Of a stretch of DNA of 64,000 nucleotides, positions 381 through 36,352 are shown piece after piece. The DNA is from Candidatus Nitrosomirales archaeon (GTDB lineage: Archaea; Thermoproteota; Nitrososphaeria; Nitrososphaerales; UBA213), in contig JBMCYV010000011.1 of NCBI GenBank assembly GCA_049199595.1, positions 7,851 through 71,850 of the forward strand, given 5' to 3'. Within the stretch, counting starts at the first letter, position 1, and each line of letters opens with the position of its first letter. The notes beneath the pieces are model-generated. The model searched no databases and was not told where the DNA came from. It saw only the letters and a program-made list of their open reading frames with translations. A program made the translations under genes and the position numbers.

Positions 381-442
381 GTTATTGTCAAACATAAATG
401 TATCTTCTACTAGCGAATTGTAAAACTGCATTTATTCGACCA

Positions 443-1015
443 TTATAGTTCTAGCTGGAAAGTATATGCGCCGCCAGCACCATATGCAGATGCTATAAGC
501 AACCTCGTAAGAAATTGTAGCATATCATCTGAGAATGTATGCGATGAACCTAGGAAGAATATAACAGGCAGCGAAGCAAGCGATATTGCGCCAACCATCA
601 GCTGCTCAGAAAAACTCGCACCACTGACCTTCCGTGTAACCAGATATGTTGATGTATTTCCCAGCCCTATTCCAAGGAGGATCAAATCCAAGTAATAATT
701 AGGAAATATGGATATAAGCACAAAAGGAACTGCCCAGCACGCACCAGCTACTATCTTCATTCTCAATGACCACTGGACGCTCTGCATGAACCTCCCCCTC
801 ATAGCTTTAAACATATGCGGATATCTGAAAACAAAAGCGGAAATCGTGCCTGCAAGTATTCCTATCCAGATTATAGGATAAAAGTAATACGCGAAATGAT
901 AGAGAAATGCTATCTCCGTTAATGATGATGCGGCAGCAACGCCAATTGCAATGCTGATGAAAAACATTCCAAAGGCACGCCTAACTGCACCGACACTATA
1001 ACCCATGCTACACAT
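443..1015 (-). CDS. polytopic membrane protein, function unknown
   Basis: 190-aa ORF with about 5-6 hydrophobic helices (FFISIAIGVAAASS, YPIIWIGILAGTISAFVF, IVAGACWAVPFVLISIF, LILLGIGLGN, VGAISLASLPVIFFLG). I recognise no family motif. Confidence 0.55.
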   Translation of the reverse strand: MCSMGYSVGAVRRAFGMFFISIAIGVAAASSLTEIAFLYHFAYYFYPIIWIGILAGTISAFVFRYPHMFKAMRGRFMQSVQWSLRMKIVAGACWAVPFVLISIFPNYYLDLILLGIGLGNTSTYLVTRKVSGASFSEQLMVGAISLASLPVIFFLGSSHTFSDDMLQFLTRLLIASAYGAGGAYTFQLEL

Positions 1016-1128
1016 TCCGAGGTACTGATATTAATTCTAACCTACTTTCCCTTTATAACCATCTGAATTGCATTCATGAGATGTAAGATTATTATTTCTG
1101 TTCAGGTTTATAGGAAAGAGGAGAAACC

Positions 1129-1977: not shown

Positions 1978-2094
1978 TAGACGAGTTTGCTAGTTTCATA
2001 CTAATACTTCGAGTATTAACTAGCCTCGATAACCAGAACTATCGCGTACTATCAATAATCTCATTTTCCTCAAACATAAATAAAAAACTGAATT

Positions 2095-2466
2095 CTATCG
2101 ACTTTTGATCACTGATTCTTCCTTTTTCTTCCTGCTCATTACAAAGAACGCGGCAGCAACGCCACCAAATATCGTTCCTATTATTGCCACGAACGTACCC
2201 ATCTCACCAAAGGTTCTGCCTAGCATTGCTGTACCTGAACCATAGGCACCGGTCTGTTGTGCGCTGGTGATCCGCTCCTTTGCCAGTATCGTATTTTCAG
2301 TACACGCAAATACGGGGATGCCCAACTGCGTGCATTGTTTGATCTGCTCGGGAGTAGCTACTTGAGCTCCCCCTCCAGGCGAGCCACCATACTGTGCAAA
2401 GGCCGGGATGTAAACTGCAGCTCCTAGCACTGCAATCAAACTCAGAGCGTATACGATTTCTCTCAT
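2095..2466 (-). CDS. small exported protein with C-terminal TM anchor
   Basis: I trimmed the track ORF 2095..2529 to the ATG at 2466 (MREIVYALSLIAVLGAAVYIPAFAQ, a signal-peptide-like N-terminus). The upstream 21 codons of the track ORF are the translated promoter element (copy A). The C-terminus is FVAIIGTIFGGVAAAFFVMSRKKKEE, a TM helix with a basic tail. Confidence 0.6.
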   Translation of the reverse strand: MREIVYALSLIAVLGAAVYIPAFAQYGGSPGGGAQVATPEQIKQCTQLGIPVFACTENTILAKERITSAQQTGAYGSGTAMLGRTFGEMGTFVAIIGTIFGGVAAAFFVMSRKKKEESVIKSR

Positions 2467-2497
2467 TGCATTCATAATAACACATGTAAAACTAAAA

Positions 2498-2531
2498 GCC
2501 CTTACGCACCTAAAGAGCGCTTCAATCATGC
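2498..2531 (-). promoter_or_regulatory. conserved upstream element, copy A
   Basis: Read on the minus strand: GCATGATTGAAGCGCTCTTTAGGTGCGTAAGGGC. A T-rich TATA-like box follows, and ATG 2466 lies 35 nt after the GTAA. It matches copies B and C at 27/30 positions each. Confidence 0.65.
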
Positions 2532-2558
2532 ATATTATCTTAGTTGATGTAACTTTGG

Positions 2559-2747
2559 TTACGCATATTCAACTAATACCTTTTTCTGCCGAGATTCTTC
2601 CGTGCAAACTCTTTGACTCACAATGACCTTCTGAATAGTTATCTTAGCATTACACTGTGGGCAATTTTTTTTGTTCTTTGCAAAATATGTCGCAAGCCAA
2701 AAACATTCTGGACATAGTGCAAATGAAACCTGCTTTGCATCTTGCAT
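2559..2747 (-). CDS. small zinc-ribbon protein
   Basis: 62-aa ORF with two CxxC pairs (CPEC ... CPQC). Confidence 0.5.
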   Translation of the reverse strand: MQDAKQVSFALCPECFWLATYFAKNKKNCPQCNAKITIQKVIVSQRVCTEESRQKKVLVEYA

Positions 2748-3011
2748 TATAATCTAATAGCAATCAAACTTAAAATGTGTTGTGTACAAATAGAGAGTCC
2801 TTATGATGCACAATGTCTTTTAATTTGTTTTATTATATTATATCACACCGTTAAAACCCCAGCAGAATGACAGCCAGACTTAAGAAAGGAAAACCCAGCT
2901 AGGTGGGGAGGCAAAAAATGCCTCTCCACATTATGACATTACAACACAAAACACATTTTACAACATGAGTTATTTGTTCAAATAAAAAAATAATATGTTT
3001 GGTTCTTGCTT

Positions 3012-3287
3012 CTAGAACCTTACATATGGTGGTAGGATCAGAACTCGACCCTGACCCATTCGTGCAAGTCCAAATCCCTCATCGACAACATGTGAGTGCA
3101 GTTCTCGCAACGCGTATTCAGTCTGCTCAAAACTCTTCTTCAAAATCGGCAACATGCTTACGATAAGGATTCTGTCTCCTCTCATCTCGTCCTTGACTTT
3201 CTGCACATCTGCGAGCTTTTCGATCTTCGCGAACTTGAACTCTATGCCCTTGTCGTCTAGCTGTGAAATGTAGGTTTGCTTTTGCAT
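3012..3287 (-). CDS. small cytoplasmic protein, possibly SepF/DUF552-like
   Basis: 91-aa ORF. The pattern KIEKLADVQKVKDEMRGDRILIVSMLPIL...ALRELHSHVVDEGFGLARMGQGRVLILPPYV resembles the SepF core as I remember it (a beta-alpha unit, then a G-rich strand ending in P..V). The family call is tentative. Confidence 0.45.
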   Translation of the reverse strand: MQKQTYISQLDDKGIEFKFAKIEKLADVQKVKDEMRGDRILIVSMLPILKKSFEQTEYALRELHSHVVDEGFGLARMGQGRVLILPPYVRF

Positions 3288-3323
3288 GATAATACAATTA
3301 GCATAAATGATAAAAAGCGTTGT

Positions 3324-3355
3324 GCATGATTGATGCGCTCTTTAGATGAGTAAAC
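3324..3355 (+). promoter_or_regulatory. conserved upstream element, copy B
   Basis: GCATGATTGATGCGCTCTTTAGATGAGTAAAC. The flank AAAAGCGTTGTGCAT is also shared with copy C (AAAAGCATTGCGCAT). The ATG 34 nt after the GTAA is at 3388 and opens a 29-codon ORF. The 144-aa ORF starts 67 nt further on, at 3455. Confidence 0.6.
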
Positions 3356-3454
3356 TTTACTACTGAATTAACATATTATGAACATTGATGATAGATTATA
3401 AGATTAGTCTCTTTGGTAATTTGATAATAACAATTACGAATAACTGTGATAATT

Positions 3455-3889
3455 ATGAAAAGCAACTTGTGCAATGAGTCACCTAATACGAAACAAACAA
3501 TAAAAATATCTACAGCAGATATAGGCGCGCTCCTAAGCGAGTACTCAGAACTTGTACTTTCCTTGAAGACAAGATTCCCGCATACCGATCTAAGATTCCT
3601 TCTGGGACTGATGTCTCACGAATTTCTGTACCCAGAACATGCTCCAACATCGCAGATAGAAATATTCTACAGAGATGATGTGGACCTGAACGCAAAAGGA
3701 GCGTTGTTATCTAAAAGAATTGATAGCGTGCCGGCCGTTTATGATTCTGAGAAACGAGTAGTTATAGAATCTAGACTAGAACTTGACGATATAGGGGAAC
3801 TTGCACAGGATCGTGACATAGAGAGCCTTGCTGGAGAGATAGTTTGCTGTCTTGACACTTTGCTAAACCGTAGAAAATATCTTGTCTGA
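3455..3889 (+). CDS. hypothetical protein
   Basis: Track ORF 3446..3889, trimmed to the first ATG (MKSNLCNESPNT...). No recognisable motif and no signal peptide. Confidence 0.5.
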   Translation: MKSNLCNESPNTKQTIKISTADIGALLSEYSELVLSLKTRFPHTDLRFLLGLMSHEFLYPEHAPTSQIEIFYRDDVDLNAKGALLSKRIDSVPAVYDSEKRVVIESRLELDDIGELAQDRDIESLAGEIVCCLDTLLNRRKYLV

Positions 3890-3998
3890 TTTGAGTTACA
3901 TATAGCAGAAAACCTTTCAGCAAAAATAAGATTGATTCTGTTACTACTTCATATGAAAAGAATGCTAATATAAAAAAAATTGTTAACCTAGCGAAATT

Positions 3999-4661
3999 CT
4001 AGGTTAATTTGCTCATGCTAATACCGCCATCGAATATCCAGTTGTGTCCAGCAACCTTAAGGTCCGAGTGGAAGTTACTCATGTTGCTGACGCTCTGCGT
4101 ACTTGGTGTACTGGGGATACCGCCTGACAGAGCGCCGTCAGCATTCAGCACAAAGTCATTTCCATTTAATGTTAGACCGAATCTCTTGTAGTACACTGCG
4201 GCACCGTTGTTTACTGCGTATGTTTTATCACCTATCTTTACATTGCCCGATTCTACCTGGAACACTACTGCACTAGGATTGTCTCTTATGGATGCTTCAG
4301 CTCTGTGCAAGGATCCCTTTTCCGCTAACACATTCAAGTTGGCAACCTTTATCGTTACTTGGCCACTTATTGGAGCCCATCCATGTGCACTAGGTCCGCT
4401 GGCACCAGATCTAAGGTTAATGCTTGGAGTTACTATATTGGTATGATACCGCGTAAATCCACTAGATGGTGATTCCAACTGTGCTTGACCTGATATTGTT
4501 AACACGTACTCACTTACCTGCTTCGGAGTATTTGGAACGAACTTGTTTTTCATTTCTGGCTTACCATGTGCTGTTACTGCAAATGCAGGTGCCGTTACGA
4601 CAGCAATCATACCAATTAGCATAACAGACATGCTTAATCCAAGGATCACATTTCTTTTCAT
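3999..4661 (-). CDS. exported protein, function unknown
   Basis: I trimmed the track ORF to the ATG at 4661 (MKRNVILGLSMSVMLIGMIAVVTAPAFA, signal/anchor). The track's GTG start lies inside a GGAGGTG Shine-Dalgarno-like box (4677-4671) that sits 9 nt upstream of this ATG. Confidence 0.7.
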   Translation of the reverse strand: MKRNVILGLSMSVMLIGMIAVVTAPAFAVTAHGKPEMKNKFVPNTPKQVSEYVLTISGQAQLESPSSGFTRYHTNIVTPSINLRSGASGPSAHGWAPISGQVTIKVANLNVLAEKGSLHRAEASIRDNPSAVVFQVESGNVKIGDKTYAVNNGAAVYYKRFGLTLNGNDFVLNADGALSGGIPSTPSTQSVSNMSNFHSDLKVAGHNWIFDGGISMSKLT

Positions 4662-4716
4662 TTGTTTATTCACCTCCCTATCATTCGTTTAGCAAAAATA
4701 AAATGAAAAGCATTGC

Positions 4717-4749
4717 GCATTATTGAGACGCTCTTTAGGTGCGTAAGCC
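4717..4749 (+). promoter_or_regulatory. conserved upstream element, copy C
   Basis: GCATTATTGAGACGCTCTTTAGGTGCGTAAGCC, followed by TTTATTAC (TATA-like). ATG 4781 lies 34 nt after the GTAA. Confidence 0.65.
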
Positions 4750-4780
4750 TTTATTACAATTTTAATGAATATATCTTGAG

Positions 4781-5674
4781 ATGAAAACTAAAATTGTCCT
4801 GGCAGTACTAATGTCGATCTTGTTGCCATTGCAAGCAGTCGCCTTCAACGCAGCCTTTGCCGCAAAAACGATGCAGATGCCTGATCAATACTATCCAACT
4901 CTCTTGACGCAATCGACACAATATCCAAATGTAGGATTAAAGTGGATGCCTGATAAGCCATATGCTGGTCAGGAAATAACATTCACAATATCGTTCAAGA
5001 AACCTAGTAACGGTTCACTGCAACCAAACATAGATTACAAATTCGCCATAGCAAAGGATGGTTCCAGTGTATTTACCGTTATGAGGCATTCAAACATGGG
5101 TTCAGATACCATAAAGCAGAAACTTGATAGCGATGGTAAACACATCGTTACAGTAACTATTACAGGCATAGACTTGAAGAAGGTCGATCCAAAAACATCA
5201 GATTTCTCCTTGGTTGTGGTAAAGGCACAGACGCGGAAGCAAACTCCACAAATGCAACAGCAGAAAGAGACTGGGTCAAACATAATGTCACAGATGAGAG
5301 AAGTAAAGAAACCACTGAGAGCAGGTTTAGTTGATGAAAAGGGTAAACACCTAGGCGCTGTGAATATTTTTCAGAAAGATTCACATGCTTTAATCACAGT
5401 ATGGCTACGACCAGTAGGACCTGACGAGCATATTTCAGCTTGGCTAGTTGCTGGCCCAAATGAACAGATAACAAAGAAGTGGAGCCAAGTCGATAGCATG
5501 TCTATGATTAAGATAGGACATGATGAAACCACAAGACATGTAAACGTGTTTAATAAAATACTGAGCTTCGTCCCTGCAAGTGGCGATAAGATAGTTATCA
5601 CCATGGATGACTGCAGCACTGGGCATTGTAAACAGACAACGAATCATATAGCGACTGCAACGTTGAAGATGTAA
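4781..5674 (+). CDS. exported protein, function unknown
   Basis: 297-aa ORF with a signal peptide (MKTKIVLAVLMSILLPLQAVAFNAAFA). No recognisable catalytic motif. Confidence 0.7.
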   Translation: MKTKIVLAVLMSILLPLQAVAFNAAFAAKTMQMPDQYYPTLLTQSTQYPNVGLKWMPDKPYAGQEITFTISFKKPSNGSLQPNIDYKFAIAKDGSSVFTVMRHSNMGSDTIKQKLDSDGKHIVTVTITGIDLKKVDPKTSDFSLVVVKAQTRKQTPQMQQQKETGSNIMSQMREVKKPLRAGLVDEKGKHLGAVNIFQKDSHALITVWLRPVGPDEHISAWLVAGPNEQITKKWSQVDSMSMIKIGHDETTRHVNVFNKILSFVPASGDKIVITMDDCSTGHCKQTTNHIATATLKM

Positions 5675-6843: not shown

Positions 6844-8004
6844 TTGCTGAGCCAAGAGGTACTTGATCATGTATTATTAGGTAGAGAGATCAGAAGAGAG
6901 GAAGCGTACGCATTAATGCACTGTAATGCCGATCAACTGTGTGAACTCGCATACCGAATTAGGAAAGACGCAAAAGGTAGCCTAGTAACATACTCTAGAA
7001 AGGTCTTCATACCGCTGACAAACCTGTGCAGAGACACATGTTCGTACTGCACGTACAAAAGAGAACCAACTGACCCGAGAGGAATAATGATGAAACCCGA
7101 ACAGGTTTTGCAGGTTGCAGAAGGAGGAAAGAAGGCAAAGTGCACTGAAGCATTGTTCATGACAGGCGAAAGACCTGAACAGAAGTATGATGAAGCTAGA
7201 CAATGGTTGAAATCTCTTGGTTATTCAGGCACGCTTGAATACATTATACAGATGAGCGAACTTGTACTAAAGAAGACAGGACTTTTTCCTCACACAAATC
7301 CTGGCAATATGACGACAGAAGAGATGTTAGCATTAAAGCAATCAAATCCCAGCCTTGGAATGATGCTTGAGAATGTAAGTGAGAGGCTATGCGGAAAGGA
7401 CATGCCCCATGAGCTGGCTCCAAGCAAGAATCCAAAGGTCAGACTCAAGACGATTGAAAACGCGGGGAAGCTAAAGATACCATTTACAACAGGTCTTCTT
7501 GTCGGTATGGGGGAAACACCATACGAACTTGTCGATTCATTGTTTGCTATCAAGGAACTACACGCAAAGTATGGTCATATTCAGGAAGTGATCATACAAA
7601 ACTTCAGTCCCAAGCCAGATACTCCAATGGCTTGTGCTCCAACACCGACGTTGAACTACATGCTGAAGGCTGTTGCAGTTGCTAGGGTAATAATGCCCAG
7701 CATGAACATACAGGTTCCTCCAAACCTTAACCCTAGTCATTATGGTAAGTATCTGGATGCTGGTATAAACGATTGGGGAGGAATATCTCCTGTTACGATT
7801 GATCATGTAAATCCAGAATTCGCGTGGCCAAGAATTGATGATGTTAAATCTGCAACTGAAAGAAAGGGATTTGTCTTTAGAGCTAGGTTGCCAGTTTATC
7901 CAAAATATATCAACAAAGAATTTCTTTCCGATAATGTTATGGACCATGTTGAAGCTATCGCGGATGCGCAAGGACTTGTAAAGGAGGAATATTTGCGTGA
8001 CTGA
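6844..8004 (+). CDS. cofG: FO synthase subunit 1 (7,8-didemethyl-8-hydroxy-5-deazariboflavin synthase, CofG)
   Basis: Radical-SAM box CRDTCSYCTY, length 386 aa, and an 8-nt overlap with its paralogous CofH partner. CofG/CofH family similarity runs along the whole protein. Confidence 0.9.
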   Translation: MLSQEVLDHVLLGREIRREEAYALMHCNADQLCELAYRIRKDAKGSLVTYSRKVFIPLTNLCRDTCSYCTYKREPTDPRGIMMKPEQVLQVAEGGKKAKCTEALFMTGERPEQKYDEARQWLKSLGYSGTLEYIIQMSELVLKKTGLFPHTNPGNMTTEEMLALKQSNPSLGMMLENVSERLCGKDMPHELAPSKNPKVRLKTIENAGKLKIPFTTGLLVGMGETPYELVDSLFAIKELHAKYGHIQEVIIQNFSPKPDTPMACAPTPTLNYMLKAVAVARVIMPSMNIQVPPNLNPSHYGKYLDAGINDWGGISPVTIDHVNPEFAWPRIDDVKSATERKGFVFRARLPVYPKYINKEFLSDNVMDHVEAIADAQGLVKEEYLRD

Positions 8005-9238
8005 TATGAAAAATATGGACCCTGTAGTAGCAGATATTTTGAACAGAGCCTTGGATGACAAGGAATTATCTGTCGATGATGCTGTAGCACTGTTCGAGTG
8101 CAACGAAACAGAACTTAATATGCTCATCCAAGTTGCCGACGAACTGAGGAAGCGAAAAGTAGGCGATATGGTAACATATGTTGTCAATCGAAATGTTAAC
8201 TTTACAAATGTCTGCATAAAGCGCTGCGGCTTTTGTGCCTTCAGCCGGGACTTTAGAGAAGAGGAAGGTTACTTCCTGCCAACTGAAGAGATTGTGAGAA
8301 GGGCAAAAGAAGCATGGAATCTTGGAGCAACGGAAGTATGCATACAGGCAGGTCTCCCGCCAAAGATGGACGGTTATCTCTACGTCGATATCTGCAAGGC
8401 CATAAAGAAGGAACTTCCAGACATTCACATACACGGCTTCTCTCCCGAAGAGGTGCTTTATGGTGCTGTTAGATCAGATACCAGTGTTGAAGATTACCTG
8501 AAGATGCTGAAGGAAGCTGGTGTAGGCAGTTTGCCAGGAACAGCTGCGGAGATACTGGATCAGGAGATCAGGGATATGATTTCGCCTGGAAGAATAACTG
8601 TTGATGAATGGATCAGAGTGATCAAGACTGCGCATAGGTTGGGCATACCAACGACCTCTACGATAATGTACGGGCATCTTGAACAATCTATACATAAGGC
8701 AAAACACCTTGCACTAATAAGAGAGATTCAGAAGGAAACGCATGGCTTCACAGAATTCGTGCCGCTAAGTTTTATCTATACAGAGGCGCCGATGTTCAAA
8801 CGCAAGACTGTTGACGGGGTAAGGACAGGTGCTACTAAAGAGGAAGTGATCAAGATGCATGCCGTATCAAGATTAATGCTGAATAACTACATAAACAACA
8901 TACAGGTATCATGGGTTAAGGAAGGTGCAGAATTTTCACAATTCTTGCTGGACGTTGGCGTAAATGACTTCGGTGGCACATTGATAAACGAAAGCATATC
9001 AACTGCTGCTGGGGCCCAGCACGGACAGTTGCTTAAACCAAAGGAGATGAGGAATCTTATACGAAGGTCCGGAAGAATTCCTGCTCAAAGATCTACTACA
9101 TACAAAATACTAAAGATGTTTGATGGTGATGAATATGAAGAACCGTTGGATAGAATTGATGATATTTCTAGGTTTGGTTCCTATCATCAGTTGATCAAAC
9201 TTGATGAATATCGTTTCAAGAACACTCTGCAAAACTAG
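7997..9238 (+). CDS. cofH: FO synthase subunit 2 (CofH)
   Basis: Radical-SAM box CIKRCGFCAF, plus PGTAAEIL, IMYGHLE and FVPLSF motifs of the CofH/MqnC/MqnE clade. Lies directly after cofG. Confidence 0.9.
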   Translation: MTDMKNMDPVVADILNRALDDKELSVDDAVALFECNETELNMLIQVADELRKRKVGDMVTYVVNRNVNFTNVCIKRCGFCAFSRDFREEEGYFLPTEEIVRRAKEAWNLGATEVCIQAGLPPKMDGYLYVDICKAIKKELPDIHIHGFSPEEVLYGAVRSDTSVEDYLKMLKEAGVGSLPGTAAEILDQEIRDMISPGRITVDEWIRVIKTAHRLGIPTTSTIMYGHLEQSIHKAKHLALIREIQKETHGFTEFVPLSFIYTEAPMFKRKTVDGVRTGATKEEVIKMHAVSRLMLNNYINNIQVSWVKEGAEFSQFLLDVGVNDFGGTLINESISTAAGAQHGQLLKPKEMRNLIRRSGRIPAQRSTTYKILKMFDGDEYEEPLDRIDDISRFGSYHQLIKLDEYRFKNTLQN

Positions 9239-10636: not shown

Positions 10637-11788
10637 TTACAAGATATCTACAGTTGTGCTTCGAACAGGCGAAATTGCATTTGGACTATCTATGCTTTCC
10701 CAGACAAATACTTCGATAGAAAACATGCCCTGAGCATCAGGAATCCATGATTGTGCAGCCTTGAATGAATCTTCTGGAGGAAGCTCTCCTGTTACCCATG
10801 AAAGTGATACCGTTACACCTTCATCATCCTTTATCTGAACTATATATGCAAATGGTTGCTTCTTGTTTTGATTGTTAGTTATTTCAGACTGAATCAGTAC
10901 TTGCTCACTTGCAGAAACAGATTCTACGCTTTCTCCTCTGTTGTCAACAATCTCTGGTTCCGATGCAACGGCTCTTTCGATTGGTGGAATCAAGTATCCA
11001 ATGCTTGCTGAAGCAAACAACTCTTCAACTTCAACAGTTTCGAAATTATTGCTACTTAGAGCAGCTGGTGCAGGCAAACTGTTATCTGTGTACTTCACAG
11101 TTATGGTGTCACCTTCGGAAACTCTAAGCCTAGTACCAGTGCTCTCCTCATCCAATGTGAATGTAAGAAATTCCGCGAACAATCCAGTCCTGTCACCTGT
11201 CTCTCGTAGTGTTACCAATAATCCGCCTCTGTCTGCAGTTGACCAGACTCTTACGTCCAGCGTGTCTATTGTGTCTGGACGCATGTTCTTATCAACGTCT
11301 ATAACGATTATCTTTGCCATGTCTGTCACTTTGTATGCCGGTTCTGCAAGCATCACAGAACTCGAGTAAAAGTCAACATCCACACGTGCTGAGAATTTTC
11401 GATCAGATGTACTAAACTCGACTATGAGATCATCGTCCCTTTGAACCACCATATCTCCAGGCCAGAGATTAGGATCTGGCGTCAACCCAACGCTAGTTGC
11501 AAAGATGCCTCGATTTTCTGCAATTTCAGTAAGCACAATTTTATGAGCTGGTTTCTGCATCCTTGCCATTGAACTGGTAAACACATTTGCTGTTAGCGTA
11601 TCTTTCTTGTCGGGATCAGAATTTGCTTTCTGGTAGTTTATCGCAGCAATAACCTCATCAAAGGGCAAGTATACCCGCTTATCGAACGCGATTTCAGGTT
11701 CACTCGCCACAGAAAAGGACGTTGTGAATCCAGTAGCAAGAATAGTGACTAGAACTGCAGCTGCAAATAACCTATAAGGTGTTTGCAT
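10637..11788 (-). CDS. exported multidomain protein, paralog 1 (two ETG-type modules plus the shared C-terminal module)
   Basis: I trimmed the track ORF to ATG 11788 (MQTPYRLFAAAVLVTILATGFTT, signal). Strongly similar to the next gene over DTIDTLDVRVWSTADRGGLLVTLRETGDRTGLF...GTRLRVSEGDTITVKYTDNSLPAPAALS and over the last ~110 aa. Confidence 0.75.
   Translation of the reverse strand: MQTPYRLFAAAVLVTILATGFTTSFSVASEPEIAFDKRVYLPFDEVIAAINYQKANSDPDKKDTLTANVFTSSMARMQKPAHKIVLTEIAENRGIFATSVGLTPDPNLWPGDMVVQRDDDLIVEFSTSDRKFSARVDVDFYSSSVMLAEPAYKVTDMAKIIVIDVDKNMRPDTIDTLDVRVWSTADRGGLLVTLRETGDRTGLFAEFLTFTLDEESTGTRLRVSEGDTITVKYTDNSLPAPAALSSNNFETVEVEELFASASIGYLIPPIERAVASEPEIVDNRGESVESVSASEQVLIQSEITNNQNKKQPFAYIVQIKDDEGVTVSLSWVTGELPPEDSFKAAQSWIPDAQGMFSIEVFVWESIDSPNAISPVRSTTVDIL
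10640..10966 (-). other. shared ~110-aa module, copy 1 (C-terminus of paralog 1)
   Basis: ASEPEIVDNRGESV..EQVLIQSEITNNQNKKQPFAYIVQIKDDEGVTVSLSWVTGELPPEDSFKAAQSWIPDAQGMFSIEVFVWESIDSPNAISPVRSTTVDIL. Confidence 0.7.
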
Positions 11789-11864
11789 GTTATAATTATG
11801 ACGCCATATATTATTGAACTTTCTCACTTTTGTATCAATTGACAAACCATATCCGCAACTGAAT

Positions 11865-12998
11865 TCACGAGAGAACGGTAATAGTCTTCATTCTAACCGG
11901 AGATAATGGTGCAAGATTGGTTAAACTATCCCAGACAAATATCTCTACGGTATACTCGTCTGGTCCTGAAGGCATCCAAGATTGAGCTACTTTTAGAGAC
12001 TCCTTTGCTGGTAGTTGTGCACTAATCCAGGACAATGATTCAGTTATTCCTTCGGAATTCTTCACTTGCAGAATATACACAAAAGGTTGCTTCCTGCTCT
12101 GAGTATTGGTTACTTCTGACTGCACAAGTATCTGCTCGCCGATAAATACCTGTGAAACACTCTTCCCAAAAGAATCAACTATTATTGGTTCCGAAGCTGG
12201 TGCCCTATCCATCGAAGGAACTTCCTGACCGAATATGCTCTCGGCAAATATCTCTCGCACCTCCACAGTATCAATACCACCAGCAGAGAGTGCTGCAGGA
12301 GGTGGAAGCGTGTTGTCAGTGTATTTTAGTATTATTCGATCACCATCTGCTACTCTCAACCTAGTGCCAGAGCTTTCCTCATCAAGCGTGAATGTCATGA
12401 TCTCCTCGAACACTCCTGTAGCTGCTCCCGTCTCCCTCAAGGTTACAAAGAGTCCTCCCCTGTCGCTGTCAGACCAGATTCTGGCATTTAGAGTATCTAT
12501 CGTGTCGGGATTCCTGTTCATGTCGCGATCTGCAATAGTTATCGTAGCCTGATCGCCAAATTTGTACGACGCCTTGTCGAAGAATGCGGTTCCTACATGG
12601 TAGTTTACGAATATGCTCTGCGTAACTACCGTATCTTCATCGATTCTGAAGGAAACGCTCAAACCATCTTCCCTTCTGGTCTGCACATCTCCAGGAAACT
12701 TTGAAAGATCTGGGCTCAAACGAATATCATCTTCAAAAACCCCAGTGCTCAATCCAGTTTCTGGCAAGGAAAGCTGCTTCTGTGAAAATGAGCTCGAGAT
12801 CATGACCCTGATGGTATCTATACGATCGCGATCCTGATTGGAATCCGGAGAAAAGATCTTGATAACTACTTTGTCGAAGGGAGTGTAGACAGTTCCTGAC
12901 TGATCTACTTGAGCGTATGCAATATGTTGCGTACTCTGGTATGGATAAATCATGATTATCAGAAATAATGAAATAAGAGACAGTTTTTCGGATTCCAT
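11865..12998 (-). CDS. exported multidomain protein, paralog 2
   Basis: Signal peptide MESEKLSLISLFLIIMIYPYQSTQHIAYAQ. Same domain order as paralog 1 (DTIDTLNARIWSDSDRGGLFVTLRETGAATGVF...GTRLRVADGDRIILKYTDNTLPPPAALS, then the shared module). Confidence 0.75.
   Translation of the reverse strand: MESEKLSLISLFLIIMIYPYQSTQHIAYAQVDQSGTVYTPFDKVVIKIFSPDSNQDRDRIDTIRVMISSSFSQKQLSLPETGLSTGVFEDDIRLSPDLSKFPGDVQTRREDGLSVSFRIDEDTVVTQSIFVNYHVGTAFFDKASYKFGDQATITIADRDMNRNPDTIDTLNARIWSDSDRGGLFVTLRETGAATGVFEEIMTFTLDEESSGTRLRVADGDRIILKYTDNTLPPPAALSAGGIDTVEVREIFAESIFGQEVPSMDRAPASEPIIVDSFGKSVSQVFIGEQILVQSEVTNTQSRKQPFVYILQVKNSEGITESLSWISAQLPAKESLKVAQSWMPSGPDEYTVEIFVWDSLTNLAPLSPVRMKTITVLS
11868..12197 (-). other. 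shared ~110-aa module, copy 2 (C-terminus of paralog 2)
   Basis: ASEPIIVDSFGKSV..EQILVQSEVTNTQSRKQPFVYILQVKNSEGITESLSWISAQLPAKESLKVAQSWMPSGPDEYTVEIFVWDSLTNLAPLSPVRMKTITVLS. Confidence 0.7.
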
Positions 12999-13102
12999 CT
13001 AGAAACTAGTGTGTATCTTAGAGTTATAAACTATTAATTCGTATCAGAAAGACAAATACAAGACTTTGTTACCGTAATCAGCTTGTTCTGTCATTCGTTT
13101 TG

Positions 13103-13219
13103 CTAGCCATAGCTCAGTCAGGGACAGCACCGGAGGTAATGGTGAAACTTTTAACTTGACTGAAGAGATCCGGGGTCTCGGGATCGATGCCTGATGGGCC
13201 GGCTTAAACGAGAATTAGC
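13103..13219 (+). tRNA. intron-containing tRNA, best reading tRNA-Lys(UUU) with two mini-introns around the anticodon loop and a possible third intron in the 3' acceptor strand
   Basis: Canonical 5' half: T8 A9, GCTC, AGTCAGGGA, CAGC, A26. Anticodon stem is CCGGA (13130-13134) / TCCGG (13169-13173), separated by 34 nt. T arm is TCGGG-ATCGATG-CCTGA (13178-13194), with the same unusual ATCGA T-loop as the tRNA at 36203. The only canonical 7-nt loop whose flanks fold as BHB motifs is CTTTTAA (13148-13154). Acceptor CTAGCCA pairs with TGG (13195-13197) plus TTAG (13215-13218). Genomic length of 117 nt = 73 + 13 + 14 + 17. See the finding for details and caveats. Confidence 0.55.
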
Positions 13220-13706
13220 GTAAGCCTTTGCAAGAACCAGACTTTCCTACTGGTAATCTGACACCGCCCTGTAATCTGGATGGCGTCACAACTTTCTCGA
13301 TGCAGTCAGGTACATTCCATGCTGTTAAGGTTGCACCCAATCCACATGAACAGGTCGAATTGGACGGCTATAAATTCGAATGGTTACCACGGAATAAAGA
13401 AGAAGCTTACTTTTTGTGCGAGGTAATCGACATTCGCGTACCTGCACTGCACCTAACGATCAGGAATACGCCTTTAGACCATGTAATTCTGCGGTTGACC
13501 TGCATCGGAATTCTATCACATTTTATATGGAGAAAAATTTGGCTATGCTTATAATTCCAAAGAAGAGTAAGGATACTTTGGTGAAGATATATGGTAACAT
13601 ACCTCGCTAAACCTGAAGTAAAGTAACATAATACAATACAATATCGACTAATGTATTGTCAGATGCTGCTTATGGGCTCTTAAGAAATGTGGTTGATGAC
13701 GGTTCA

Positions 13707-15719
13707 TCAATGTTCTACACTAAGCACGATTCCCTTCAATCCAGAGATTTGTACAGCAATTGGTTCAGTGGGATTATCTGAATAAGAAGCATTTGCAATG
13801 GTTTGTAACGCTAAAAGGTGTTCTCCTAATGGTGCATTGTCTCTCAGGTTAATTTTAATTTTGAATTTTGACATGTGGTATCCAGCATATCCAGTAAAAA
13901 CATCATGTTGAGGCACTATGTCCAAGGTTAACCAGCCCGGTAATTGGGAAATTCTATTTTCCAGCAGATTGTAATACTTAATGGCGATAGTGACATTTAC
14001 GGTTACATAATTAATTCCTCCATCAGCTCTTATCTTTCCCATAACTGCAGTCTTTATCTCCCCCTGCAGTGTTGCTGAAGAACCTGGAAAAATCTGTATA
14101 TGGTGAGGATGAACAGAACCATCTGCAAATGGACCGACAACTGTCTGGATTCCAGTGCTTCTGTTTACTCCAACATCCCTGTAAGTGCTTGCGCCGTCAA
14201 GTGCAACTGCTTTCAACCTCAACTGATAACCTGGATATTCAGAATACTCTGAAGAGATCAACGACAAAACGTACACGTTGAGCCTCTTTACCTGCCCAGC
14301 TTTCATAACAAGATGGTCTGGAAACGCTTTACCAAATAGATCGCCGGCTGTTAGCACTGATAGGTTCACTTCCCTATCTCTGCCTGAAAATACGTACACT
14401 GGAAATTCTGTCCGCGCCCTATCTATCGAGTTTCCGCTGATATCAATGCCTAATGGAGAGACAATTAAGAAGTCTTTTTGTTCTTCAACCCGAAAGACTC
14501 CCTTGCCTTGAACATCAAGTATCAGGTGAAATGTGGAGCCTGGCCTGTTCTCTGTTTCCGGTGTTACAGCAACTATATACTTTCCTAAGCTCGCATCTTT
14601 AGCGACATCAAACCGCAATGAGAAATTTAGATCCTTGAACTTTGGAACCGTTTCACTCTGTGTTACGTTCATGGTTGGAGTGACTGACAACCATTCAGGA
14701 AGGACGATCAACGTATTACTAGTCAAGTCTAACAACTGTATCTTCTTTATTTCTGGTACTGGTGCGAACCCTGGTGCTGAGCCAAAAGATCCTTTCACAG
14801 AACCTGAAGAGCCTCTCTCGACTTCAAGTAGTCTAGGACTGTAACGCAGATACGGATCATCTACCGACCAACCACCTAAAAGATTTACACGTACCACCTT
14901 GCTGCCCAAGACACTCCCATGATCATCCAGTGCCTTTATGATGATTATATCGTTGATTGGAACAGCGATGTTCTCTAGAAACAAGTTGGTAACAGCTCTA
15001 TGCCCAGGCTTTGCATGTAATGCGCTAGGAACTAATTTGGCAAAAAGGCTATCTTGTGCGCTGGTTATTGTCAAATGAACATCTTCTTCACTCCTGAACT
15101 TCAGAAATACTGGCATGTTCAACCCATACCGTCCATCACTCGGAGAAATGTTGCCTACCAAACCTTTCACTCCTATACTTACTGTGTTAATATTCTGGTC
15201 TGGCTCTCGGAGCACAAGTGTTGTATTTACAGAGACATGTAGTGTCCTGACCGAGTCTAGTGCCTTTGGGTTATCAAGGTTGTCCCAAACGAAAAACTCG
15301 ATTGTGTAGTCCTGAGCCTTCTCTGGGATCCAAAGCAACTTTAGTGTGGAAGATTCGCTAGGCTTGATAGTTTTTCCTGTCCAAGACAATCGATCAGCAT
15401 AACCATTCCGATCCTTTATCTGCGTTATCAGCAGAAAAAGTCTTTCCACAGTGTCTCTATTGTGAACATTGAATTGAATTAGAACTTCTTCGCTAGAATA
15501 CACTTCTTTCAGAGGATTACCTAACATGTCGTATAGAATAGGTTCATCTTGCGTTATATTTGTAGCACTGCTAAAATCATTCTCAGCGTGGACTTTTGCA
15601 GAAGAATTAATTCCAGTTACGTGAATGTGATAGGCGGAAACTATTTGAAAAATGGGACAACTTAACAAAAGAATACTCATTACCATACCAAGTAACAATA
15701 TTCTCCTTTTAACCGACAA
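13707..15719 (-). CDS. large exported protein with the shared module near its N-terminus
   Basis: 670 aa. Signal/anchor RRILLLGMVMSILLLSCPIFQIVSA. Residues ~58-164 are the shared module. The remainder is beta-rich with no catalytic motif I recognise. Confidence 0.75.
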   Translation of the reverse strand: MSVKRRILLLGMVMSILLLSCPIFQIVSAYHIHVTGINSSAKVHAENDFSSATNITQDEPILYDMLGNPLKEVYSSEEVLIQFNVHNRDTVERLFLLITQIKDRNGYADRLSWTGKTIKPSESSTLKLLWIPEKAQDYTIEFFVWDNLDNPKALDSVRTLHVSVNTTLVLREPDQNINTVSIGVKGLVGNISPSDGRYGLNMPVFLKFRSEEDVHLTITSAQDSLFAKLVPSALHAKPGHRAVTNLFLENIAVPINDIIIIKALDDHGSVLGSKVVRVNLLGGWSVDDPYLRYSPRLLEVERGSSGSVKGSFGSAPGFAPVPEIKKIQLLDLTSNTLIVLPEWLSVTPTMNVTQSETVPKFKDLNFSLRFDVAKDASLGKYIVAVTPETENRPGSTFHLILDVQGKGVFRVEEQKDFLIVSPLGIDISGNSIDRARTEFPVYVFSGRDREVNLSVLTAGDLFGKAFPDHLVMKAGQVKRLNVYVLSLISSEYSEYPGYQLRLKAVALDGASTYRDVGVNRSTGIQTVVGPFADGSVHPHHIQIFPGSSATLQGEIKTAVMGKIRADGGINYVTVNVTIAIKYYNLLENRISQLPGWLTLDIVPQHDVFTGYAGYHMSKFKIKINLRDNAPLGEHLLALQTIANASYSDNPTEPIAVQISGLKGIVLSVEH
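15228..15548 (-). other. shared ~110-aa module, copy 3 (N-terminal region of the 670-aa protein)
   Basis: DEPILYDMLGNPLKEVYSSEEVLIQFNVHNRDTVERLFLLITQIKDRNGYADRLSWTGKTIKPSESSTLKLLWIPEKAQDYTIEFFVWDNLDNPKALDSVRTLHVSV. Confidence 0.65.
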
Positions 15720-15936
15720 TTCTAACCACCATTGGATTCGAACACATGAGGAATGAGTAGTTGATCCAAGTATATTGATATTACCATTTGCATATTACAG
15801 TTCTGTTTCAGAACTTTCAGAAATAAAAAAAATTTACTCAAATAAGATTTTTGGCGTAAGATTACGGAGCCTGCTAACCTGCTAGAGTTCCTGATACACC
15901 GAGAAATAAAAACGGGGGATTGTGATAGCTTTATTA

Positions 15937-16875
15937 CTACCACAATGATGTTTCCTGAGGTTTGCATGGATTGGGGCTGCAAGTTCTAGCATCCCATTGT
16001 ACTGTTCCGGCAGACTGAGAACCATCTGTTAATAGCGCTTGTGGATATACGTTGTTGAAAGTGATGCCGCCCACATAGACACTTATCTTAATACCCTGAT
16101 AATTAGTCCACCATGTTATGTCGCTAGCCCCTTGGTATAACCTTGCATTGTAGCCACTAAGCAATTTAGTTTGCGGAGGGGAGAAGTCATAGCTATCAAC
16201 AAAGAACATGCTATTCTGCTTGAGTTGGAAATTACCGGTCTGGTCAGGTGCTTCGGCGGCGAATTGGAAGAACTTCTCGTCCAGGCCGTTGCCACTGTAG
16301 CAAGAGCTACCTTTACACTCACCGAAAAGGAAGTAGGTAGTGCTCTCATAAAATTTCTTCAAGTAAGAGTTTGTTGCTGTAACCGAGGTACTGTCATTCT
16401 TATAGCAGGTATGACCAAAGAGCACCCTACTTTTATCAGAATTAAAGTATGCGTTTCCTGTGATGTGATTCAAGTCGACTTTCTTACATATTTCTATATT
16501 AAGAAATTGTTGTATTTGACCCCAGCTAGTAAAAGCACTGTTTGGACCCCATACCTGATCTGGATTATACATCGACCCATCGGTATCCCACTGATTTACT
16601 ACTTGATATACAAAACCATTGACACCTCCGGTTCCTGAAGTGCCGGTCGAACCTGCAAGTGAAAGCACAGAAAGCAGGTCTTGGCCAGGATTACCATTCT
16701 TGCTGAAAAAGTAATTATTAAACTGTCCTTTATCAATGTGGTATATTGTGGTGCCGAAATATCCATACCCTCCGATATATGGTTGATCCGCATATGCTAC
16801 ACTGATTAATCCTGAAATTGGTAAGAGTATGGCAAAGCTAGTCACAACAATTGTTTTAGTTAGTTTTGTTGTCAT
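15937..16875 (-). CDS. exported Cys-containing protein, function unknown
   Basis: 312 aa. Signal peptide MTTKLTKTIVVTSFAILLPISGLISVAYA. Gly/aromatic-rich, with several Cys pairs. Its start codon shares A16875 with the upstream stop codon (ATGA), indicating translational coupling. Confidence 0.65.
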   Translation of the reverse strand: MTTKLTKTIVVTSFAILLPISGLISVAYADQPYIGGYGYFGTTIYHIDKGQFNNYFFSKNGNPGQDLLSVLSLAGSTGTSGTGGVNGFVYQVVNQWDTDGSMYNPDQVWGPNSAFTSWGQIQQFLNIEICKKVDLNHITGNAYFNSDKSRVLFGHTCYKNDSTSVTATNSYLKKFYESTTYFLFGECKGSSCYSGNGLDEKFFQFAAEAPDQTGNFQLKQNSMFFVDSYDFSPPQTKLLSGYNARLYQGASDITWWTNYQGIKISVYVGGITFNNVYPQALLTDGSQSAGTVQWDARTCSPNPCKPQETSLW

Positions 16876-17501
16876 TATGGTAGCACCTCCACAGTAATTC
16901 CGCTTGATTTACCAACTACACTCGGATATTGAAGATCAGCATCGAATGCTGGGGTTATCTGTATTGTTTTGTAAAGCATTTCATCAGGGATGTTATTTGG
17001 TATAGATATTTTCATACTTATTGAAGCCTTAGAATTAGCTGCTACTGTAAGCGTGGTTGGTGAGATAGTTATGAAGTCATTAACAGAAATTTCTCCGTGT
17101 ATAGGTACGCCTTGAGCTACTAGGTCATCGAACTGCTCGTCTGTTAGACCTGCATGTGCTGAAGGAGCAAAGTTCCTCACTGCATTGTGAAAATTACTCA
17201 GTGTTACCGATTCATCTTTCACATGACTCGAATTCTCAATAGTTATATCAACAGTTATGGTTGCGCCACGCTTAATAGAGATTGTCGAGGGCGTTATACT
17301 AGACTTTATATAATGTGCTGCTGAACCCTCTTCGAATAACTGCTTGGGAGTCTTTGCTCCTGCACTGACTTGAGGCTGTTGATTAACAGATTGAGCTTGC
17401 GTATCATTCAGATTACTCGTGAGTAATGCTATTGCAATTATTCCTATGACGGTTGCCGGCAGCATTGCAGCGAATACTTTTTTATTCATTATTTTCGTCA
17501 T
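16875..17501 (-). CDS. exported protein, function unknown
   Basis: 208 aa. Signal/anchor KKVFAAMLPATVIGIIAIALLTSNL. Beta-rich (Ig-like feel). Coupled to the downstream 312-aa gene. Confidence 0.65.
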   Translation of the reverse strand: MTKIMNKKVFAAMLPATVIGIIAIALLTSNLNDTQAQSVNQQPQVSAGAKTPKQLFEEGSAAHYIKSSITPSTISIKRGATITVDITIENSSHVKDESVTLSNFHNAVRNFAPSAHAGLTDEQFDDLVAQGVPIHGEISVNDFITISPTTLTVAANSKASISMKISIPNNIPDEMLYKTIQITPAFDADLQYPSVVGKSSGITVEVLP

Positions 17502-17622
17502 TAACTAAATAATAGCTGGAGAACTAGATAAGCCTCGCTCAGCATCTAGTACGGACTGTATAGTAAGTATTAATGTTCTATTACTTTGGTCAGCACTGCA
17601 GAAGGTAAAAAGAAATTATTAT

Positions 17623-17898
17623 TTATTCTGCATACAATAGTTTGATGAGTTCTCTTCCATTTTCTGTAAGGCGTACAAGCTTTTTCTTTCCATCAGCAAA
17701 GGTTTCTACAAATCCAAATTTTTCCAAAAATCTTACATATCTGTGACACGCAAAATGATTCGTTCCAGTCTTCATCTGGAGGTTTGTTATGCCTATCGGG
17801 CTAGAGTCAGATAAACTATTCAAGAACCGAATCAGAACTTCTAAATCTATCCTTTTTAATGATATTTTATTCTGAGCCGCCGCTCGCGGCATGATCAT
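17623..17898 (-). CDS. small winged-helix DNA-binding protein
   Basis: 91 aa. IDLEVLIRFLNSLSDSSPIGITNLQMKTGTNHFACHRYVRFLEKFGFVETFADGKKKLVRLTENGRELIKLL has the same wHTH layout as 6516..6803. It is the only non-exported product in the 13.7-24.5 kb array. Confidence 0.65.
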   Translation of the reverse strand: MIMPRAAAQNKISLKRIDLEVLIRFLNSLSDSSPIGITNLQMKTGTNHFACHRYVRFLEKFGFVETFADGKKKLVRLTENGRELIKLLYAE

Positions 17899-18029
17899 GT
17901 GTCATAAATATATAGTTATTACTATTTAAGGCTTCTTTGGCGATTTATGTCCAAGTAAGGTTAACTATTGTTCAGCAGTTGGTGTTCCATCTGATCTCTT
18001 GGACGCAAAAATCCAATCTTTAGAACTTA

Positions 18030-20474
18030 TCAAATTCTACCGGGTCTTTCGGGATCAGTAAAGCCATCAATTACTGCATGGTTGTTAAAGAGTTGTTCAA
18101 CGAGTTCTGTGTCCAGCCGCATAAAACCTTGATTTTGGGTAAGCACGTAATGTAGATCTTTGAGATAGTATACATTTCTGGTCGTTGCACCAACTCCAGA
18201 GTCTTCATGATATGAGGGAAAATCGTACTTATCAGACATTATTTTCCACATGTCCTTGATGTCCAAAGCAATTTCATCGTCGTCATCTTTCCCGCTATCA
18301 TAAATATCCCAAAACACTCCCGCTACTGCCATTTCCTCTGAAAGAAACTTTGGAGAGTTTACCATGTAGTTGGTTTCAAGGTTATACTGCAGGAACTTTC
18401 CAGCTCGTTCGTTCTTGTAGTGTTGCGAGATGGCAGCAGACATGAAATCTGCGAATCCCTCGACCATCGAATCTTCGGTTGTTGGATTGCTAAAACCACC
18501 ATGATTCATGCTATGATATTGACCTATACTAGCGTAGAGATCCTGCATATGGTGTGTATATTCATGTGCTACAGTGTCCCATGTGTACGGATTCCTAGGC
18601 GAACTAGCTCCTTTACCAATCCATATCTTTGGTGCACTTCCATGCGTTTCGTATCCATACTTGCCCTTTGATGTTGTCGAACTGAAGATCTCAATGTCTA
18701 TCTTATCTGGTTGTAGGCCTATGACATCAGTATAAAATCTCACAACTTCGTTCTGCATGGAAAATATTCTTGCCGCTGCAGCTTCAGATTTGCTAGAAAA
18801 TATTACAGGCTCCAATTCTATATCGTGCAAGCCGCCATCAAACTTGATATTAGCAATTTTCTTCGATATCATTTTTGAATTCGAACCATCTATCAGTCGG
18901 AAGTACTTTCCATCGAGTTCAACTGTGAGCGAAAATACGTTCTTAATGTTTTCGATTATAGAATGTAGATCCTGAAATTCATACTTTCCAAAAGCATCGG
19001 TATAGGAGTCGAACTCTCCATAGGGACTCAATATCTTGACCTTCACTCCCTCTAGAGGAACGCGCTTGCTGTCTGGATCTTCGTACCAAACAGAACCTAC
19101 GATCTTATATTCGGATAACGGTCTAGGCTCCTCGAAACGAAGTGTTTTTGACACCCTAAGAACGGGAGAGTTTTCTGTCTCAGCAATTACAACATAGTTA
19201 CCTTCAGGAAATAGGTACGATGGTCTGGTCCAGTGCATCAACTCTTTTTCAAACGCTTCACCGGGATAAACGAGTGTGCTCTTGGCAACAACTGCGTTTC
19301 CTGCTGGATCGATCAACTTTATGTTAACCTTCTCCTTTGGCGGTCCTATCCCTGAGACTATGAGAAGATCATTAGATGCGAAACTGTCCTTGTTAAGCTC
19401 CAGCGTTAGAGTCCTTGGTTTGAATCTGATTTCATGCTGGCCACTCATCGATGGAAGAAAACCGTTGCCACCAGCAAAGCTTGCATAAACTTTCAGGAAA
19501 TTATCAGTATCAAGCTGTAGAGCCTTCCAGTTGATGAAAAACTTCCCATCGTCCCTAGTTACCCATTGTGCAAGTGTCCCGTCTTCAGTATCATTGTAGT
19601 TTATCAGGATTACAGCTTCCTTGATCGCCAAACCAGTCTTCGTTTCTAACTTACCCGTAAATACCAGATCATCATTGTATGTTGCATTGTTCGGAGGTCG
19701 ATCTAGTGTCAGGACAGTCTCTAGGCCTTGTGGCAGCTCGATTATCTGCTTTATGAAGAAGATTAGCATTCTCTGTTCAGAAACCAAGTCTGTAGTTGAT
19801 CTAACATAGACAACGTAAGTCCCCGAATCGTTCGAACTACTCCATGTAACTAAAGTAGCATTGAACTTTCCACTTTCATCTATAACTATCTTTGTTGCAT
19901 AAACAACTGAATAGGCACTTGTCGTTACAAAAACAGACAAAACGTCCTTCGGCCTGCCAGATCCATAGATAACCAACGGTTCATCATTCTTGTACAATTC
20001 CTTGCTGGTATGAACTAGCAGATCAAGCCTTTCAACTTTGACGTTATGCGCTTCGCTGCTAGAACCCGAATAATCACCATGTCCAGCATAGCTTGCATAC
20101 ACGCTGAACGTATCCTTCTTTTCCGACTCCACAGCCCATTTTATGTTGAATCTTCCATTGTCATCAGTACTGCCAGCAGCTATTACATTTGAACCCGTCA
20201 AAACATTCTCGTTCTTTATCATTATAGGAGCCTTTGCAATGCCTTGATTGGTACCTGCCTTGACAAGTCTGCCGCTAAGGGTTATAGTGTCGCCTGAATA
20301 TGCCTTTTCAGGTACGTTCTCAAGTATTATTGTAGTCTGGACTTTCTCCGCATTCGCAGTAACAATGCTGGATGCTAGAAATATGCCAAGAGCTACAGCA
20401 AGGAATCCTTTTATTCCAATCTGTAATCTTTTCCTTTTTTGATAGATAACATTTACCGCAAGTTTCTTTATCAA
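18030..20474 (-). CDS. exported zinc metalloprotease (HExxH) with N-terminal repeated beta-sandwich domains
   Basis: 814 aa, TTG start, signal/anchor GFLAVALGIFLASSIVTANA. Internal repeats (..GDTITLSGRLVKAGTNQGIAKAPIMI..TDDNGRFNIKWAV..VYASYAGHGDYSGS / ..DDLVFTGKLETKTGLAIKEAVILI..TRDDGKFFINWKA..VYASFAGGNGFLPS). Catalytic motif WDTVAHEYTHHMQD. Confidence 0.8.
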   Translation of the reverse strand: MIKKLAVNVIYQKRKRLQIGIKGFLAVALGIFLASSIVTANAEKVQTTIILENVPEKAYSGDTITLSGRLVKAGTNQGIAKAPIMIKNENVLTGSNVIAAGSTDDNGRFNIKWAVESEKKDTFSVYASYAGHGDYSGSSSEAHNVKVERLDLLVHTSKELYKNDEPLVIYGSGRPKDVLSVFVTTSAYSVVYATKIVIDESGKFNATLVTWSSSNDSGTYVVYVRSTTDLVSEQRMLIFFIKQIIELPQGLETVLTLDRPPNNATYNDDLVFTGKLETKTGLAIKEAVILINYNDTEDGTLAQWVTRDDGKFFINWKALQLDTDNFLKVYASFAGGNGFLPSMSGQHEIRFKPRTLTLELNKDSFASNDLLIVSGIGPPKEKVNIKLIDPAGNAVVAKSTLVYPGEAFEKELMHWTRPSYLFPEGNYVVIAETENSPVLRVSKTLRFEEPRPLSEYKIVGSVWYEDPDSKRVPLEGVKVKILSPYGEFDSYTDAFGKYEFQDLHSIIENIKNVFSLTVELDGKYFRLIDGSNSKMISKKIANIKFDGGLHDIELEPVIFSSKSEAAAARIFSMQNEVVRFYTDVIGLQPDKIDIEIFSSTTSKGKYGYETHGSAPKIWIGKGASSPRNPYTWDTVAHEYTHHMQDLYASIGQYHSMNHGGFSNPTTEDSMVEGFADFMSAAISQHYKNERAGKFLQYNLETNYMVNSPKFLSEEMAVAGVFWDIYDSGKDDDDEIALDIKDMWKIMSDKYDFPSYHEDSGVGATTRNVYYLKDLHYVLTQNQGFMRLDTELVEQLFNNHAVIDGFTDPERPGRI

Positions 20475-36325: not shown

Positions 36326-36352
36326 CCTAAAATCAAAAATCTAAAATATACG

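Follow-up and report, generated by a model that had tools for sequence, protein, structure and literature searches.

The tRNA-like element at positions 13103-13219 of the window, the 64,000-nucleotide stretch of DNA analysed here from a Nitrososphaerales-type ammonia oxidiser (labelled Candidatus Nitrosomirales by NCBI), is very probably a non-functional paralogue (pseudogene) of the two-intron tRNA-Lys(UUU) gene of its lineage. Since an identical locus is present in an independent Logan assembly (SRR11829679; locus L009), the element is not an assembly artefact. The window DNA also matches JGI contig Ga0376077_0000656. Read directly, positions 13102-13219 run G-CTAGCCA-TA-GCTC-AGTCAGGGA-CAGC-A-CCGGA, then 34 nt, then TCCGG-GGTC-TCGGG-ATCGATG-CCTGA-TGG, followed by GCCGGCTTAAACGAGAA-TTAGC (Table 1). 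The first-pass annotation of this DNA had described a tRNA interrupted by two mini-introns and possibly a third intron, and its coordinates and base-level observations are accurate. The 5' half is tRNA-like (U8 A9, D arm GCTC/AGTCAGGGA/CAGC), the T arm is TCGGG-ATCGATG-CCTGA with an A54-type loop (ATCGATG), the anticodon-stem strands CCGGA (13130-34) and TCCGG (13169-73) lie 34 nt apart, and the accounting for all 117 nt is correct.

Standard searches do not recognize the element. ARAGORN calls no tRNA anywhere in the window, and the element likewise goes uncalled with the intron option. Rfam reports no tRNA in the window at the gathering threshold and none in 12900-13400 at E<=10 with permissive filters. 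Once all three proposed introns are deleted, ARAGORN calls tRNA-Lys(ttt) with an 8-bp acceptor stem. Deleting the two anticodon-arm segments alone yields no call, so the original case for a functional gene hangs on the third segment. Minimum-free-energy folding of the anticodon arm does not reproduce the bulge-helix-bulge (BHB) registers.

Table 1 Features of the tRNA-like element and the adjoining island (positions in the window)
Feature	Position	Strand	Description
5' acceptor-strand place, GCTAGCCA	13102-13109	+	Not homologous to native GGGCCCG (alignment A1)
Exon-1 homologue, tRNA positions 8-30	13110-13133	+	U8 A9, D arm, A26, first four anticodon-stem bases
Intron 1, 13 nt, position 30/31	13134-13146	+	Relaxed BHB, CACC GG|A GGTAAT GGTG AA|A
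Exon-2 homologue, ACTTTTA	13147-13153	+	Position 31 and anticodon-loop positions 32-37, anticodon UUU
Intron 2, 14 nt, canonical 37/38	13154-13167	+	CTTT TA|A CTTGACT GAAG AG|A (direct reading)
Exon-3 homologue	13168-13194	+	A38, anticodon-stem 3' strand, 4-nt variable loop, T arm
TGGGCCG+G	13195-13202	+	Homologue of native 3' acceptor strand CGGGCCC and discriminator G73 (alignment A1)
3'-trailer-derived tail	13203-13219	+	CTTA matches trailer of natives L025/L026; includes TTAGC
Variable island	13220-18029		Four minus-strand ORFs, no useful family hits; tRNA remnant at edge

Intact tRNA-Lys(UUU) genes that contain both introns are present in seven related loci (L025, L026, L031, L032, L033, L038, and L039), hereafter the native genes. 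Their introns measure 13 nt at position 30/31 and 12 to 14 nt at position 37/38. The second is 14 nt long in six of the loci and 12 nt in the more distant L038, which keeps both introns and has GGAG in place of GAAG. The 5' part common to the six loci is GGGCCCG-TA-GCTC-AGTCAGGTA-GAGC-A-TCGG-[A+12 nt]-ACTTTTA-[14 nt], and the 3' part is A-TCCGG-GGGTC-TCGGG-ATCGATG-CCCGA-CGGGCCC-G. Removal of the 13-nt and 14-nt segments leaves the same 74-nt tRNA-Lys(UUU) in all six, with every stem intact, a 7-bp GC-rich acceptor (GGGCCCG/CGGGCCC), and G73, in the midst of divergent flanks. The unspliced native genes score 44 bits against the Rfam tRNA model (gathering threshold 29) under the permissive filters that the element fails to pass at E<=10; this comparison of native genes and copies rests on permissive-filter runs only, as Rfam at the gathering threshold with default filters misses even the intact genes.

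The first-pass annotation had raised the question of a separate intact tRNA-Lys(UUU) gene, and one is present at L039 (3614-3714), in sequencing run SRR11829679, the same run as L009, whose locus is identical to that of the window. The dehydrogenase gene neighbouring the L039 tRNA is labelled Candidatus Nitrosomirales archaeon in NCBI, JGI, and Logan, and NCBI gives that name to the 659-aa orphan protein of the window as well. What ties L039 to the window genome is a shared sequencing run and a taxon label, not a single contig.

The native genes were located in metagenomes by sequence words and by synteny. A scan for the D-loop AGTCAGGGA combined with CTTTTA and GGGATCGA gave zero matches; the D-loop G20 that this pattern requires is specific to the window copy. 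A second scan, for the 20-nt T-arm word GGGGTCTCGGGATCGATGCC common to the window and L010 (a copy in a sister lineage), returned three real tRNA genes (L025, L026, and L031) and nine chance matches in GC-rich coding DNA. A conserved native neighbour, a flavin-dependent dehydrogenase, then led to L032, L033, L038, and L039. When run with the intron option, ARAGORN takes the intact gene, with its two introns, for a tRNA-Leu(aag) that has a single 25-nt intron (L031 6517-6617, L039 3614-3714, and other native loci). The surroundings of the native gene differ by lineage: L039 (2500-3720) has a HicB-like antitoxin, L038 (3530-4120) a large surface protein, and L026 (5900-7500) both a 109-aa membrane protein and an FAD/NAD oxidoreductase. 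Because these surroundings vary between lineages, the native locus itself may be an insertion hot spot.

Comparison with the native genes bears out the earlier reading of the anticodon arm, including both pairs of splice sites, the isotype (Lys), and the anticodon (UUU). As the same insertions occupy the same positions in intact homologous genes that splice to a perfect tRNA-Lys(UUU), the two introns stand above chance. Intron 1 has the helix CACC/GGTG (4/4 pairs) with bulges GGA and AAA, and intron 2 has the helix CTTT/GAAG with bulges TAA and AGA; these 4-bp helices had been proposed in the register that is correct for 3-nt bulges. An inner helix is missing from both, leaving a relaxed BHB motif. 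With the two introns removed, the window copy has the anticodon arm CCGGA-CTTTTAA-TCCGG with a perfect 5-bp stem. We checked the splice-site register on the strict BHB of the tRNA-His gene in Nitrosocaldus-like loci, and it also fits a 15-nt intron in L006 (GGCC GG|A ... GGCC AA|T), which has the architecture of intron 1. Substitutions in the central helices of homologues all keep pairing (CATC, CACC, or CACT with GGTG; CTTT with GAAG or GGAG).

Introns of this kind are known from related archaea. Of the 141 tRNA genes in three Nitrososphaerales genomes, 53 contain a single intron and 22 contain two, with no three-intron gene among them (PMC8450103 Table S7), and all 16 three-intron tRNA genes are in Thermoproteales (PMC8450103). 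On these counts, two introns are ordinary for Nitrososphaerales and three would be new for the phylum. Some Thaumarchaeota tRNA genes contain multiple non-canonical introns and need a BHB model of their own (PMC8450103, tRNAscan-SE 2.0), and introns can be such close neighbours that the second BHB forms only after one of them has been excised (PMC8450103). The thaumarchaeal splicing endonuclease is of the (alpha-beta)2 type, which accepts relaxed BHB motifs (PMC4090602). Like the two-intron tRNA genes of Nitrososphaerales (PMC8450103), the element combines a canonical 37/38 intron with a nearby non-canonical one in the anticodon arm, with relaxed BHBs and a spacing at which sequential removal is expected. 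Unlike them, it is a damaged copy, and the working genes are those at the seven native loci.

Colinearity between the window copy and the native genes begins at about position 5, extends through both introns, and reaches G73 and the trailer. The part that lacks homology is the 5' acceptor strand, for which the native genes have GGGCCCG, the window CTAGCCA, and L010 GCTACCC. Across the corresponding window positions the CC at positions 5-6 is the only match, and this stretch is the 5' breakpoint of the copy. The 7-bp acceptor that a functional gene forms between its 5' end and the strand following the T stem is broken: CTAGCCA against the contiguous TGGGCCG gives 4/7 pairs, with three consecutive mismatches. 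A TATA-like AAATTATA lies about 25 to 30 nt upstream of the native genes L025 and L031 (for L039 the read-out covers the TATA end only) and has no counterpart upstream of the copies.

Both copies have also decayed internally. They share G22->C, which creates a C-C mismatch at 13:22 (the native genes have GAGC), and a variable loop one G shorter. Changes specific to the window are G20, T63 (turning G51:C63 into a G:U wobble), T66, and G72. In L010, a 15-nt deletion has taken out most of intron 2 together with part of the 3' strand of the anticodon stem, and the stem that is left has 4 bp with two G:U pairs; under the permissive settings used for the native genes, Rfam finds no tRNA in this copy at E<=10. 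The two copies differ from one another by five substitutions and three indels (1, 1, and 15 nt) and from the native genes by about 10 changes in 94 nt. The purifying selection expected on the exons of a functional gene is evident in the native genes, 74/74 identical in six loci, and is relaxed in the copies. Identity between window and L010 is 93.7% in the tRNA-like part (substitutions only), compared with 86% for the spacer beside it and 80% for third codon positions in the neighbouring gene. The better conservation of the tRNA-like part, together with an intron 1 identical at 13/13 positions, could hint at residual constraint, though the difference is small.

Two minus-strand genes border the 708-nt gap that contains the copy. 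Flanking genes encode CofH, TldD/PmbA (83% identical to a protein of a Nitrososphaerales MAG), and two tandem SlaA-like surface proteins. The latter are paralogous, S-layer-like genes at 10637-11845 and 11865-12998 (-) with a weak match to PF28202 and a partial match to the NCBIfam anammox S-layer model. Syntenic contigs were traced through homologues of the adjacent SlaA-like protein. A tRNA-like element is present at this site in one sister lineage only (L010/L011; SlaA-like protein 92% identical). Five other related lineages, including those at 89%, 88%, and 82% identity, have a gap of 46 to 47 nt and no tRNA. The region is missing from the closest relative in the genome collection (L001), which has no tRNA at the corresponding site; its one DNA match in the SlaA-like region is to the 10637-11845 paralogue.

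Beyond the copy lies an island of about 5 kb (window ~13041-18029; L010 ~410-4990), bounded by the SlaA-like gene and a gene for a large Big_3_5/CarboxypepD_reg surface protein. Homology between window and L010 ends at 13219, and the ORFs beyond are fully different (659, 312, 208, and 91 aa in the window; 316, 376, 199, and 267 aa in L010). None of the five other lineages has the block spanning about 13041 to 18029. Among 5.8 billion sequences, the 659-aa protein has no homologue but itself. A 108-aa TTG-start ORF at 13228-13554 (+), in a 490-nt non-coding stretch downstream of the remnant, was left uncalled by the JGI gene caller, has no Pfam, NCBIfam, or PHROG hit, and is probably not a gene.

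The placement resembles the border of a tRNA-associated island, and it is conceivable, if unlikely, that the element is a relic att site (attP, attL, or attR) of a tyrosine-recombinase element that targeted tRNA-Lys, marking the edge of a decayed island. Only the 5' end of the tRNA is missing, as for a displaced or element-borne part of a tRNA target, and the position coincides with the junction at which island content differs between the window strain and L010. Transfer RNA genes, including those with introns, are the commonest integration targets in Thaumarchaeota (PMC6563490), and the 91-aa island ORF weakly matches a phage-type transcriptional regulator, the sole phage-type gene signal. 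Against this, no integrase turned up in searches of the island with Pfam, NCBIfam, and PHROGs, 12950-18600 contains no further direct repeat of the tRNA segment, the syntenic site in relatives has no tRNA gene, and the island ORFs are surface-protein-like and do not encode mobile-element functions. Next to the native tRNA lies a gene for an FAD/NAD oxidoreductase and not one for an integrase. The median length of thaumarchaeal att sites is 17 bp, with few longer than 25 bp (PMC6563490), compared with about 100 nt here, and both introns are kept, unlike in tRNA-associated island remnants. As an incomplete copy at a conserved/variable junction with an intact gene elsewhere, the element is like the tRNA pseudogenes and partial copies found at island borders.

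That the element is a functional three-intron tRNA-Lys(UUU), in which TTAGC completes the acceptor after loss of a 17-nt intron to give an 8-bp stem with G-1:C73, is very unlikely. In its favor, ARAGORN calls a tRNA once the three segments are gone, and homology between window and L010 ends exactly at the proposed 3' end. The third intron (13198-13214) is nevertheless rejected because the homologues run uninterrupted through 13195-13202: TGGGCCG-G-CTTA (13195-13206) in the window aligns without gaps to native CGGGCCC-G-CTTA. The start of the proposed intron falls within sequence homologous to the native 3' acceptor strand; the first-pass annotation had split this sequence into a "TGG exon" and the "start of intron 3". 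On this alignment, the supposed insertion is made up of the final four bases of the acceptor, followed by G73 and trailer, with nothing inserted, and the third intron is an illusion arising from loss of the original 5' end of the copy. A 5-mer that pairs with GCTAG occurs within 60 nt in 15% to 17% of random or real segments, so TTAGC (13215-19) as a third exon is not above chance; a 4-mer completing a normal 7-bp stem is present in 43% to 50% of segments. The annotation's own remark that no clean BHB could be drawn is correct, as the junction 13197/13214 pairs TGAT with CGAG (1/4 central-helix pairs), and no other register gives a usable acceptor. In L010 the proposed third splice sites give no stem, and no single extra deletion of 5 to 30 nt yields an ARAGORN tRNA. 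An intact native gene exists, and no three-intron gene is reported among 498 thaumarchaeal tRNA genes (PMC8450103). Several short introns, one in or next to the anticodon arm, would recall the three-intron genes of Thermoproteales (e.g., Pyrobaculum), yet those have a BHB at every intron, whereas the third proposed here has none and corresponds to exon and trailer by homology.

The tRNA-His-like acceptor (G-1:C73 with C1:G72) does not stand either. Its likeness to tRNA-His is a formal pairing that exists only in the three-intron model and requires the third intron, which is unsupported; the homologous genes encode tRNA-Lys and have G1:C72 and G73, and no ARAGORN drawing of a native tRNA-Lys here has an 8-bp acceptor with G-1:C73. 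As the annotation had recognized, no GUG anticodon can be assembled, and a tRNA-His identity is discarded. Other assignments were considered and rejected. For Phe, the loop CTGAAGA (13160-66) has no stem and leaves a 2-nt remainder, and for Tyr (GTA, suggested by C1:G72), as for GGT or GTG, U33 is lacking; homology in each case is to tRNA-Lys. An upstream 5' exon that would re-pair TGGGCCG (RGYGGY, then an intron ending at 13106) does not occur in the 100 nt upstream. A permuted or split gene starting from GGGCCGG after the T arm conflicts with the plain 3' acceptor strand of the native genes. The hairpin GGCTTA/TAAGCC (13201-06/13221-26), considered as a processing motif, is not conserved in L010.

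It is also highly improbable that the copy is still transcribed and spliced at its two introns to serve some purpose outside translation, such as acting as a tRNA-like RNA or supplying small RNA derived from the introns. Both BHB-like motifs and the perfect anticodon stem are kept in the window, and intron 1 is unchanged between window and L010. However, the TATA-like box of the native genes is missing upstream of the copy, L010 lacks intron 2 and part of the stem, and most relatives lack the element altogether. Expression of the copy as a second tRNA-Lys(UUU) with an AT-rich 8-bp acceptor, after removal of three segments including a 17-nt insert without a BHB, is exceedingly improbable; if true, Thaumarchaeota would have their first three-intron tRNA, and BHB-independent excision would be implied.

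The pseudogene reading accommodates these observations as follows. The working gene is split by two mini-introns, 13 nt at 30/31 and 12 to 14 nt at 37/38, whose relaxed BHB form (4-bp central helix, 3-nt bulges) is reportedly cut by the thaumarchaeal (alpha-beta)2 splicing endonuclease. In the common ancestor of the window strain and one sister strain, a near-full-length copy of this gene, from about position 5 to the discriminator and a few trailer bases and with both introns, would have come to lie between the SlaA-like gene and the variable island; the 5' acceptor strand of the source gene and its TATA box are missing from it. Because both introns are retained, DNA and not mature RNA was the template of the copy, which may have originated by segmental duplication or as the cargo or relic of a mobile element. 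Later damage includes the D-stem mismatch and the shorter variable loop and, in the sister strain, the 15-nt deletion. Presumably the copy is neither expressed nor aminoacylated. Points against a pseudogene include the following: in the window copy, the 5-bp anticodon stem is still perfect and neither splice motif has been lost, and the 8-bp pairing with TTAGC does exist, although it is statistically unremarkable.

Further tRNA genes with introns were seen in the window and in related loci. A tRNA-Arg(GCG) at window positions 36203-36327 (+) combines a perfect GGGCCCG/CGGGCCC acceptor with an A54 T-loop (ATCGAAG), and its D arm is interrupted by a 48-nt intron with duplicated CCTAGT(C/G)AG on its flanks; the gene is missed by default ARAGORN and by Rfam at the gathering threshold, and permissive Rfam gives a partial hit of 21.8 bits. 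L006 contains, at ~16300-16430 (-), a Nitrosothermus-like tRNA with the anticodon loop TTGGCAT, probably Ala-GGC, that ARAGORN leaves uncalled and that has a seeming 15-nt mini-intron between positions 7 and 8 (GGCC GG|A GCTGATAC GGCC AA|T). Nitrosocaldus-type tRNA-His(GTG) genes in L004 (~8040-8170, +) and L005 (~7650-7780, +) have a canonical 27-nt intron with a strict hBHBh' motif and a 7-bp inner helix and are missed by default ARAGORN.

That ARAGORN and default-filter Rfam miss intron-rich tRNA genes of ammonia-oxidising archaea is a pitfall for annotation. A decayed copy, in turn, can pass for an exotic three-intron gene, as a short complement is nearly always nearby. The two-intron kind of gene is already catalogued for Nitrososphaerales, and the third intron and His-like acceptor are artefacts of forcing a 5'-disrupted pseudogene to fold. 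The tRNA-Lys(UUU) of this Nitrosomirales-like lineage is now documented to have two conserved mini-introns that bracket its anticodon loop. The decayed copy marks the border of a fast-changing surface-protein island and may help in studying the turnover of such islands.
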